64,000 bases of DNA from sequence record PZ452578.1, one strand, 5' to 3'. The DNA comes from a phage. The position numbers were made by a program, and so were the translations under genes. Shown here piece after piece: positions 10,424 through 12,420 of the stretch. A model generated the notes under the pieces. It did not search any database. It was not told where the DNA came from and worked only from the letters and a program-made list of their open reading frames with translations. The number at the start of each line of letters is the position of its first letter. Positions within the stretch are counted from its first letter, which is position 1.

Positions 10424-10702
10424 TCAAAATGTAATTTCTAACCAATCACCATCACGCTGATCACTATTGACTTTAAAATTAAATCCTTCTTTTCTCAGCC
10501 AATCACCAATTTCTTCAGTAATCAATTTATCGCGAGCAGTACAATAATAACTAAAATATGTTTTACCTTGTTCAGCTGCTTTATTAGCAAGTTCTGAAAA
10601 ATCTTTAATAAAACACTCTAGCTTAAACTGTTTACTTTTAAGTGCTTTTTCGCGTAATTGATTAGCAAAAGATTCATTTTCATAAAGATCATACTGTTCC
10701 AT
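10424..10702 (-). CDS. Hypothetical protein (T4 24.2 position)
   Basis: 92 aa ORF in the compact minus-strand run between hoc and rnlB. Confidence 0.7.
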   Translation of the reverse strand: MEQYDLYENESFANQLREKALKSKQFKLECFIKDFSELANKAAEQGKTYFSYYCTARDKLITEEIGDWLRKEGFNFKVNSDQRDGDWLEITF

Positions 10703-10904
10703 TTTTCACCTTTTTATTGATATGTCTTTTTCTATAGACGACTTTTTCTCGAGTTTCAAATTTATTTTTAGCAGTCATAGCTCGAGCCCATAATACAGCC
10801 ACTTCCTTTGCCTGTAAGTTTAATTCACGAGCAATTTCAATGAATGACTTTCCAGACTCATGAAGAGTAAACACCACAACCTCAGTTCTCATAATCAATC
10901 TCAT
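10689..10904 (-). CDS. Hypothetical small basic protein (T4 24.3 position)
   Basis: 71 aa ORF; 3' end overlaps the next gene start by 14 nt. Confidence 0.65.
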   Translation of the reverse strand: MRLIMRTEVVVFTLHESGKSFIEIARELNLQAKEVAVLWARAMTAKNKFETREKVVYRKRHINKKVKNGTV

Positions 10905-10992
10905 GTTATCGAGTTGGTGCCATTATATACATCATTTTCTGATTGTGTTTTGTGTGCTTTCAAAATGAAGAAAGGGGCCGAAGCACCTACGA

Positions 10993-12411
10993 TTATGGAT
11001 AGGTATAGATGATACCAGTTTCTAAAGCAGTTTTATGAATGATGTATCCATTACGCGATTCTTGGACATCAACTTCTGGATAATCTTTCATCATCTTCTG
11101 GAGAGTGTAACGATGCAAGTAGTACTTACTATCTGGATCGTCAGTTTTCCAATCTTTACCTTCTTCGGTCATTTTTTGGATTTCATCCATAACCCACCAA
11201 CCGCACCAGATGTAAGCTGAAGTACGATGTGGAAGAGGATGAACATAAGGCAATTCACCTTCTGGTTCTGGAGCAACTTTATCAGTTACCTGAACTTGAC
11301 CTTCTGCTGTAATAGTTTTGCTATCATAATCAGTAGCAGTAACAGTTGCAGTAACTTCAATAGTTTGACTTCCAATAGATGAGGTATCAACTGTATACAC
11401 ATTAGTCGATCCTTCTACAGGAGAAGAGTCTTTCTTCCATGAATAAGTAATTTGCGCTTCTTCTGGAGCATCAGTCACATTAGCAGTAAATGTAGCCGAA
11501 GCATCTTGCTGAACATTAATAGAAGGAGGAGTCAATGTAACCTGTGGATTCATTGTCTTCTTATTAACTGTCAATGATACTTCATTTGAAGTAACTTCTT
11601 TTGCATTATAATCATCAGCAGTTACTTGGGCTACGCATTTAATTCTTTTGACTCCATTTGTAGTTGGAGTATAATTAAATGTAGAGTTAGTTTCTCCACT
11701 AACTTGAGAGTCATCTACATACCATTGATACGTAGCAGACGCTCCATCAGGTTGAGAAGCTAAGGCAGCAGTAAATTGAACTGGGGTTCCAATTACTCCA
11801 GCTGAAGGACTAGCAGGAGTTACTGCCAATGTAGTTGTCTGCGTCTTTTTATTAACAGTCAGTGATACTTCATTAGAAGTAACGCTCAGTGCATCATAAT
11901 TTGTCGCGGTTACTTGAGCTGTGCACTTGATTTTTTTAACTCCGCTTGTGTCAGGAGTGTAATTGAATGTAGCGCTAGTCGCTTCGCTCACAGGAGAATC
12001 GTCAACGTACCATTGATACGTAGCAGATGCGCCTGATGGCTGCGAAGCCAAAGCAGCGGTAAATTCAACAGCTGTTCCAATCACTCCAGCCGCAGGACTA
12101 GCAGGAGTTACGGCTAAGGTAGTCGTCTGTGTCTTATTTTTAACTGTGATAGTTGTTGTCGCTTCAGCCGTTTCCGGGCCTCCTTCAGAAAGTGTATTTG
12201 TTGCAACTACTTTAATAGTCTTTTGACCGGCAGGTCCTTTTAGTACATAACTAAAAGTTGCTTCAGCTCCATCTTGTGGAACATCATCTACAGTCCAAGC
12301 ATATGTAATAGTTCCGCCTCCAGTTTGACCACTGGGTGTAGCAGTAAACTGCTTAGTTTCATCAATAACCCCTGTCGGTGTTTTAGGAGTTATATCAACT
12401 GTAAAAGCCAT
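10993..12411 (-). CDS. hoc: Outer capsid decoration protein Hoc with four Ig-like domains
   Basis: 472 aa; repeated Ig-like modules rich in T/S/V; two adjacent modules are near-identical; position next to inh. Confidence 0.85.
   Translation of the reverse strand: MAFTVDITPKTPTGVIDETKQFTATPSGQTGGGTITYAWTVDDVPQDGAEATFSYVLKGPAGQKTIKVVATNTLSEGGPETAEATTTITVKNKTQTTTLAVTPASPAAGVIGTAVEFTAALASQPSGASATYQWYVDDSPVSEATSATFNYTPDTSGVKKIKCTAQVTATNYDALSVTSNEVSLTVNKKTQTTTLAVTPASPSAGVIGTPVQFTAALASQPDGASATYQWYVDDSQVSGETNSTFNYTPTTNGVKRIKCVAQVTADDYNAKEVTSNEVSLTVNKKTMNPQVTLTPPSINVQQDASATFTANVTDAPEEAQITYSWKKDSSPVEGSTNVYTVDTSSIGSQTIEVTATVTATDYDSKTITAEGQVQVTDKVAPEPEGELPYVHPLPHRTSAYIWCGWWVMDEIQKMTEEGKDWKTDDPDSKYYLHRYTLQKMMKDYPEVDVQESRNGYIIHKTALETGIIYTYP
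11560..12135 (-). repeat. Tandem direct repeat of about 288 bp inside hoc
   Basis: Protein segments KKTQTTTLAVTPASP...SNEVSLTVN occur twice in tandem; the two DNA copies are clearly alignable. Confidence 0.85.
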
Positions 12412-12420
12412 AAGTTATCC

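Follow-up and report, generated by a model that had tools for sequence, protein, structure and literature searches.

The hoc gene in the window (i.e., the whole 64,000-nt stretch of phage DNA analysed, record PZ452578.1) encoded a 472-aa decoration protein with four Ig-like domains, in which the second domain of the T4 arrangement (D2) occurred as a tandem pair, here called module A and module B. With a probability of roughly 90%, this gene is a copy of the widespread four-Ig hoc allele that RB27 and RB30 carry, and its two modules belong to a set of old paralogous cassettes that are shared across Tequatrovirus-type hoc genes and would recombine with one another.

The gene occupied positions 10993..12411 on the minus strand as one ORF of 472 aa plus stop. 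Its order was: Ig-like domain 1 (D1); module A; module B; a fourth Ig-like domain equivalent to T4 domain 3 (D3); and the capsid-binding domain. The ORF is hoc, the gene for a T4-type head decoration protein. In a phmmer search the window Hoc matched T4 Hoc PDB chains at E = 6e-232, and window residues 189-472 corresponded to T4 residues 93-376. The position of hoc was conserved: inh lay directly upstream, followed further out by uvsW, and on the downstream side came two small ORFs and one that was RNA-ligase-like (context inh / hoc / 24.x / rnlB). The inh-like, uvsW-like, and RNA-ligase-like neighbours were 226, 503, and 334 aa in length, respectively. The same annotation of inh adjoining hoc was found in T4, RB7, BW-1, Phaginator, and others.

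A spacer of 9 nt (12412..12420, minus strand) separated the inh stop from the hoc ATG and, as read from the sequence, contained a GGA Shine-Dalgarno-like motif. At the other end of the gene, 4 nt past the hoc stop, a hairpin (AGGUGC-UUCG-GCCCCU) with a U-rich tract occupied 10962..10988 on the minus strand. The T4 counterpart (1236-1253 of locus L023), annotated as a putative terminator, was a perfect AGGGGC-TTCG-GCCCCT hairpin, whereas the window had AGGTGC, a G-to-T change producing a U.C mismatch. The window hairpin, spotted by eye, folded at -4.9 kcal/mol (z = -0.2), a stability no better than that of shuffled sequences, and the consensus terminator scan made no call at the hoc 3' end; because of this weak fold and missing call it is labelled merely terminator-like. 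A sigma-70-like site on the plus strand of module B (11648-11675, 11/12 matches) was dismissed, because the scan gave 5 sites against 7.2 in shuffles and T4 late genes use other promoters. Between hoc and a 92-aa ORF lay a 71-aa ORF (10689-10904, minus strand) that overlapped the start of the 92-aa ORF by 14 nt; in Phaginator the equivalent position is taken by a 216-nt hypothetical CDS (gp185) whose start lies ~90 nt past hoc.

The repeat search returned two direct copies of 288 nt each, 11555-11842 and 11843-12130, at 76% identity and a spacing of 288 nt. Tandem Repeats Finder placed the repeat at 11555-12144 (period 288, 2.0 copies, 78% matches, score 710). In codon register, and on the minus strand, module A (the "extra" Ig-like domain, D2-type with an A-type core) spanned 11845..12132, or aa 94-189, and module B (a D2-type Ig-like domain with core type B, the type of T4) spanned 11557..11844, or aa 190-285. 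Compared in this register, the two modules had 68 differences over 288 nt and 18 over 96 residues (76.4% nt and 81.3% aa identity). Nucleotide- and codon-shuffled controls reached 26-30% identity (z = 18-20 for the A/B pair), and none of the other 288-nt segments of the window, sampled at every seventh start, rose above 39%. The tandem Ig-like duplication that the initial annotation had proposed inside hoc was thus upheld by the repeat search, Tandem Repeats Finder, and the shuffled controls, and its proposed limits of 11560-12135 lay within 3-5 nt of the true repeat. The same annotation had described the repeat as two adjacent 96-codon segments of near-identical sequence: the two segments are there, but near-identity was an overstatement, with 19% of residues differing.

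Tandem repeats can in principle be misassembled, and an assembly artefact would mean that the copy number of the repeat had been expanded or collapsed. The differences between the copies (68 of 288 nt) speak against this, and reads place uniquely because the longest identical run shared by A and B was 20 nt. The same structure was moreover seen in RB30's independent single-gene record, the RB27 genome, and dozens of phages and metagenomic contigs that were sequenced independently. An artefact is effectively excluded.

Each domain of the protein was characterized by profile matches and by an AF2 model. D1 (12133..12411, minus strand; aa 1-93) had 98.2% nt identity to T4 D1 and was all-beta, with pLDDT 82-94. 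An Ig_2 Pfam match covered residues 127-186 of module A, a PKD match covered residues 197-253 of module B, and D3 (11272..11556, minus strand; aa 286-380) had I-set and Ig_3 matches at 289-373 together with the corresponding AF2 strand pattern. The PKD match scored 41.7 bits (cut-off 23.5) and the Ig_2 match 28.7 bits (cut-off 27), while I-set, at 23.6 against 23.7, was borderline. The capsid-binding domain at the C-terminus (10996..11271, minus strand; aa 381-472) was not Ig-like; it was helical, of lower pLDDT, and nearly invariant in relatives. A capsid-binding role of the Hoc C-terminal domain has been described (Fokine et al. 2023, PMC10385173). The motif PYVHPLPHR...WCGWWVMDEIQK was unchanged in 19 relatives, and window residues 381-472 were almost identical to T4.

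The AF2 model, made with an alignment of 19 relatives, consisted of four all-beta domains with pLDDT mostly >90 followed by the helical C-terminal domain, which had lower confidence. In this model the strand pattern of module A was the same as that of module B. The best Foldseek matches in the PDB were four-Ig strings (Dscam, Sidekick, and ICAM-5), and RB49 Hoc (3SHS) was matched at E = 9.7e-10. Flexibility of the multi-domain string kept the whole-chain Foldseek TM-scores low (0.15-0.34), and the E-values and kind of match were used alone. Pfam, AF2, Foldseek, and the comparison with T4 all agreed with the initial count of four Ig-like domains in 472 aa, as against three in 376 aa in T4.

Comparison of module A with module B gave a dS of ~1.1, which is near saturation, and a dN of 0.13 (dN/dS ~0.12, Nei-Gojobori method). 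Between phages, the dS of the flanking Hoc domains was 0.03-0.7. Judged by these substitution rates, both copies are under purifying selection and the A/B split is old; the earlier view that the duplication was not very recent agrees with the dS of ~1.1.

D2-type modules were taken from 22 hoc genes, and their 171-nt cores were typed as A, B, or C. Core identity was 74-81% between types and 90-96% within types. In a neighbour-joining (NJ) tree of the cores, clades A, B, and C were recovered in 197, 190, and 200 of 200 bootstraps, and modules clustered by type, not by phage. The window A core had 90% mean identity to the A modules of a dozen phages versus 74% to its own B. Because the core tree groups by type, module A of the window is an orthologue of the A modules in other phages, and the duplication is older than the divergence of these phages. 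The perfect in-frame 288-nt tandem is what would be expected of a duplication specific to this phage lineage and recent on the scale of Tequatrovirus diversification; synonymous sites near saturation, and a module A that is nearer to the A modules of other phages than to its own B within type clades of 95-100% bootstrap, make such an event highly improbable, and it was ruled out on the dS and the core tree.

The distribution of the two gene lengths was taken from 51 full-length matches, an evenly spaced sample of 657 matching phage records. The hoc span was ~1419 nt in 18 of the 51 (~35%) and ~1131 nt in the other 33. The four-Ig layout is thus carried by about one in three of the Tequatrovirus-type hoc genes sequenced. 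Related Hoc proteins do not all share four domains, given the 33 genes of the ~1131-nt form, but the layout is nonetheless common. Altogether, the A core was present in 198 phage records.

Among the best 120 protein clusters, Hoc was 376 aa long in 78, 472 aa in 29, and 568-570 aa in eight. Module typing was anchored on the start of D3; five of the 120 proteins were without this anchor and stayed untyped. Single-module proteins in these clusters carried type A (43), type B (~30), or type C (5), and A-only hoc genes included those of locus L005, GiZh, and PYPS2T. The 27 two-module representatives comprised 20 A-B, three A-C, one B-C, and three typed as "A-A" with a mosaic second module. No B-A, C-A, or C-B double occurred among the ~27 two-module cluster representatives of the best 120 clusters, a set whose members are phylogenetically non-independent. 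Three-module forms were A-B-C and, by protein typing, also A-B-A and A-A-C; in the latter two, mosaicism blurs the cassette types. The 570-aa hoc of UGKSEcP2 (865-2577 of locus L039) reads A-B-C in DNA, and the 568-570 aa proteins (P0001-P0008) have five Ig-like domains.

The window hoc was itself mosaic: D1 was 98% T4-like, while module B, D3, and the C-terminus were 99% like BW-1, a three-Ig phage. Module B had 98.6% nt identity to the single module of BW-1 and 89% to T4 D2, and D3 with the C-terminus had 99.3% nt identity to BW-1. In T4 D2, the core was of type B, the head was 100% identical to that of window module A, and the tail was A-like. The module of IMG/VR locus L004 was likewise an A/B chimera. 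Cassette ends were 86-89% identical versus 64-81% for the cores. Three further matches (Salmonella phage SG1, O157 typing phage 3, and RB69; H97-H99) shared just the last 270-290 nt of hoc at 95-97% nt identity. The shared stretch is the capsid-binding domain (compared with window 10993-11280), and the Ig-domain regions were otherwise unrelated, suggesting that a recombination boundary lies where the capsid-binding domain begins.

Cassettes A, B, and C are carried singly, paired (A-B, A-C, B-C), or threefold (e.g., A-B-C), giving Hoc proteins of 376, 472, or 568-570 aa. In the proposed mechanism, unequal homologous recombination and gene conversion among the cassettes would shift their copy number and composition, and the frequent recombination of co-infecting T4-like phages would provide the setting for their exchange. 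The most likely history would be an old tandem array with repeated cassette losses, of which the three-Ig form of T4 would be one contracted state. An ordered old array with contractions is favoured over independent crossovers because the order of A before B before C is conserved.

Single-module hoc genes of all three types exist (the 43 A, ~30 B, and 5 C proteins among the listed clusters), and the A-B tandem may instead have come from an unequal crossover between two co-infecting phages, one A-only and one B-only, with the C-containing arrays formed likewise. The visible mosaicism of the window gene, T4-like in its 5' part and BW-1-like in its 3' part, would agree with such an origin, and the better conserved cassette ends would offer crossover sites. 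Random events of this kind predict both orders, however, and only A-B, A-C, and B-C doubles with A-B-C triples were seen; the single order observed therefore suggests that all derive from one ordered array. That A and B share no exact match longer than 20 nt also weighs against a crossover between A-only and B-only genes, which is considered possible but doubtful. For the founding event of the old array, the data fit a duplication in place followed by divergence, and they also fit one early unequal crossover between already diverged alleles.

Several hoc genes deviated from the regular cassette pattern. The Hoc of vB_Eco_EH2 (OZ034684.1; 401-1246 of locus L037) was 281 aa long, and its D1 and D2 module had merged into a single hybrid Ig-like domain (…ITYAW joined to YVDDSQ…). 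This hybrid looks like a deletion between the similar motifs TYAW(T)VDD and TYQWYVDD. The 386-aa Hoc of vB_EcoM_G50 (MK327942.1; 301-1461 of locus L038) had a single A-type module, the tail of which contained a 10-residue internal tandem duplication (NEKEVTSNED NEKEVTSNEV). T2 hoc (NC_054931.1; 101-1217 of locus L026) was disrupted, with 16 stops in the T4 frame, and is annotated as two fragments. The FriedrichMiescher hoc (H54, MZ501066.1) had a 1420 nt span, and its annotation reads "Hoc part 1 / part 2". Evidently hoc has been lost or broken in some lineages. A further mosaic class was represented by P0077 (567 aa, 24 member sequences), in which D1 and the C-terminal domain were T4-like and one module was A-type; the three Ig-like modules between those parts had very dissimilar sequences (KKENNSAVAVTP…, KKANSSTLKITP…, and that of a divergent D3). 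Hoc clusters P0026, P0012, P0015, and others are filed in NCBI as Escherichia coli or Shigella sonnei, with P0026 named "endonuclease". These are probably phage contigs in bacterial assemblies, with a mis-assigned product name.

T4 Hoc forms a fibre 180 A long; each gp23 hexamer has one copy bound at its centre, which makes 155 per capsid, and the protein is dispensable for growth (PMC10385173). Hoc homologues with as few as 1 and as many as 10 Ig-like domains are described (Fokine et al. 2023, PMC10385173), and the number of these domains varies from one T4-like phage's Hoc to another's (PMC11150434; PMC11853027). By homology with T4, the 472-aa Hoc would sit at gp23 hexamer centres via its C-terminal domain, with the Ig string pointing outward. 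The extra domain would contribute ~4-4.5 nm, for a predicted fibre of roughly 22 nm versus 18 nm in T4. With a fibre of this length, the distal domains would stand further out from the capsid, and a second D2-type surface would be gained. It is plausible that the extra Ig domain lengthens the fibre or alters adhesion.

Mucin-glycan binding or mucus enrichment has been reported for the Hoc proteins of T4 and of PNJ-6 and PNJ-9 (PMC9271167, PMC11150434, PMC11853027). In the three-Ig Hoc of PNJ-6, domain 1 binds MUC2 and domain 2 alone does not (PMC11150434). Residues S183-L184-T185 in domain 2 of PNJ-9 Hoc are required for MUC2 binding (PMC11853027), and a mutation in domain 3 of T4 Hoc alters glycan binding (PMC9271167). 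The role of D2 depends on context, because the key residues of PNJ-9 lie in domain 2 and domain 2 of PNJ-6 is non-binding by itself. The window Hoc had the S-L-T motif twice, at 183-185 (module A) and at 279-281 (module B). The literature searched contained no binding data on any four-Ig Hoc.

Beyond acting as a spacer, the extra module might be a ligand-binding unit that doubles the D2 glycan site, including S-L-T, and raises avidity for fucosylated mucin. The need of PNJ-9 for S183, L184, and T185 in MUC2 binding (PMC11853027), the presence of S-L-T in both modules, and the purifying selection on both copies (dN/dS ~0.12) are consistent with this role. The failure of PNJ-6 domain 2 alone to bind MUC2 (PMC11150434) argues against it; SLT also ends the single D2 of T4, a similar tail is found in other modules, and the motif may be structural. 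A ligand-binding role of this kind is accordingly rated unlikely. On sequence grounds the extra module could add valency or serve solely as a spacer.

The four-Ig Hoc variant is already known, being annotated for RB30 and a widespread allele of a well-studied protein. The extra domain first noticed in the window is real, but it is no peculiarity of this genome: it belongs to an old, shared allele that is annotated in RB30 and present in about a third of relatives. No paper describing the RB30 repeat was found in the literature searched, and the GenBank annotation is its sole documentation. The same search found no description of three cassette types, their fixed order, or the mosaic breakpoints; the literature found gives variable domain numbers, and the RB30 record gives the repeat. 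What the present analysis adds is a population-level view of three cassette types that keep a conserved order and have mosaic breakpoints, which amounts to a modest population-genetic refinement.

The "bacteriophage adherence to mucus" model is built on Hoc, which T4 vaccine platforms also use as their main display scaffold. Naturally occurring variants that have 2 to 5 Ig-like domains are therefore useful for testing fibre length and domain composition against adhesion, immunogenicity, and display geometry. In a broader and rather improbable reading, the D2-type cassettes would form an ordered, recombination-driven copy-number system (A, B, and C; 1-3 copies) that tunes fibre length and glycan-binding valency in natural populations; the three-Ig Hoc of T4 would then have contracted from a longer ancestral array, and the four-Ig form in the window would have measurably different adherence to mucus or cell surfaces.

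Among named phages, the closest hoc genes were those of RB27 and RB30. The RB27 gene (KM607000.1 / NC_025448.1) was 99.9% and the RB30 gene (AY101183.1, AAM52483.1) 99.7% identical to the window over 1419 nt, and both encode 472 aa with the same 288-nt repeat. RB30 Hoc differed from the window at V67A, K326R, and I467Y and was otherwise the same gene. The first 25 kb of the window had 99.3% identity to RB27. The repeat_region of AY101183.1 covers the repeat stretch of the window and is annotated as an intragenic repeat giving an extra immunoglobulin-like domain; the record also holds domain-by-domain features.

T4 Hoc (X14869.1; PDB 5vf3, 8t1x, and others) is encoded at the same locus and shares D1, D3, and the capsid-binding domain with the window. 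Its gene of 1131 nt encodes 376 aa with one D2 module, whereas the window has A and B and is 96 aa longer. The genes of UGKSEcP2 (OV876900.1, 570 aa) and UGKSEcP1 (568 aa) belong to the same locus and cassette family. The first two cassettes of these five-Ig proteins are A-type and B-type as in the window, while their third cassette is of type C, which the window lacks.

In a more distant clade, the Hoc proteins of L006 and L007 (471-472 aa, ~50% identity) have a window-like length and likewise carry one extra Ig-like module by tandem repetition. These repeat the third Ig domain (the KKT[IM]SGVSV... module), whereas the window repeats the second, and their repeat is an event independent of the window repeat. 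The Hoc of L012 (282 aa), from the same ~50%-identity clade, had two Ig-like domains only and was without a middle domain; L006, L007, and L012 are IMG/VR contigs in each of which hoc starts at 601. Domain-number variation is recurrent in the Hoc family, as shown by the L006/L007 repeat and the short forms of L012 and EH2. RB49 Hoc (3SHS), with three Ig-like domains, had 16% identity to the window protein over aligned columns.
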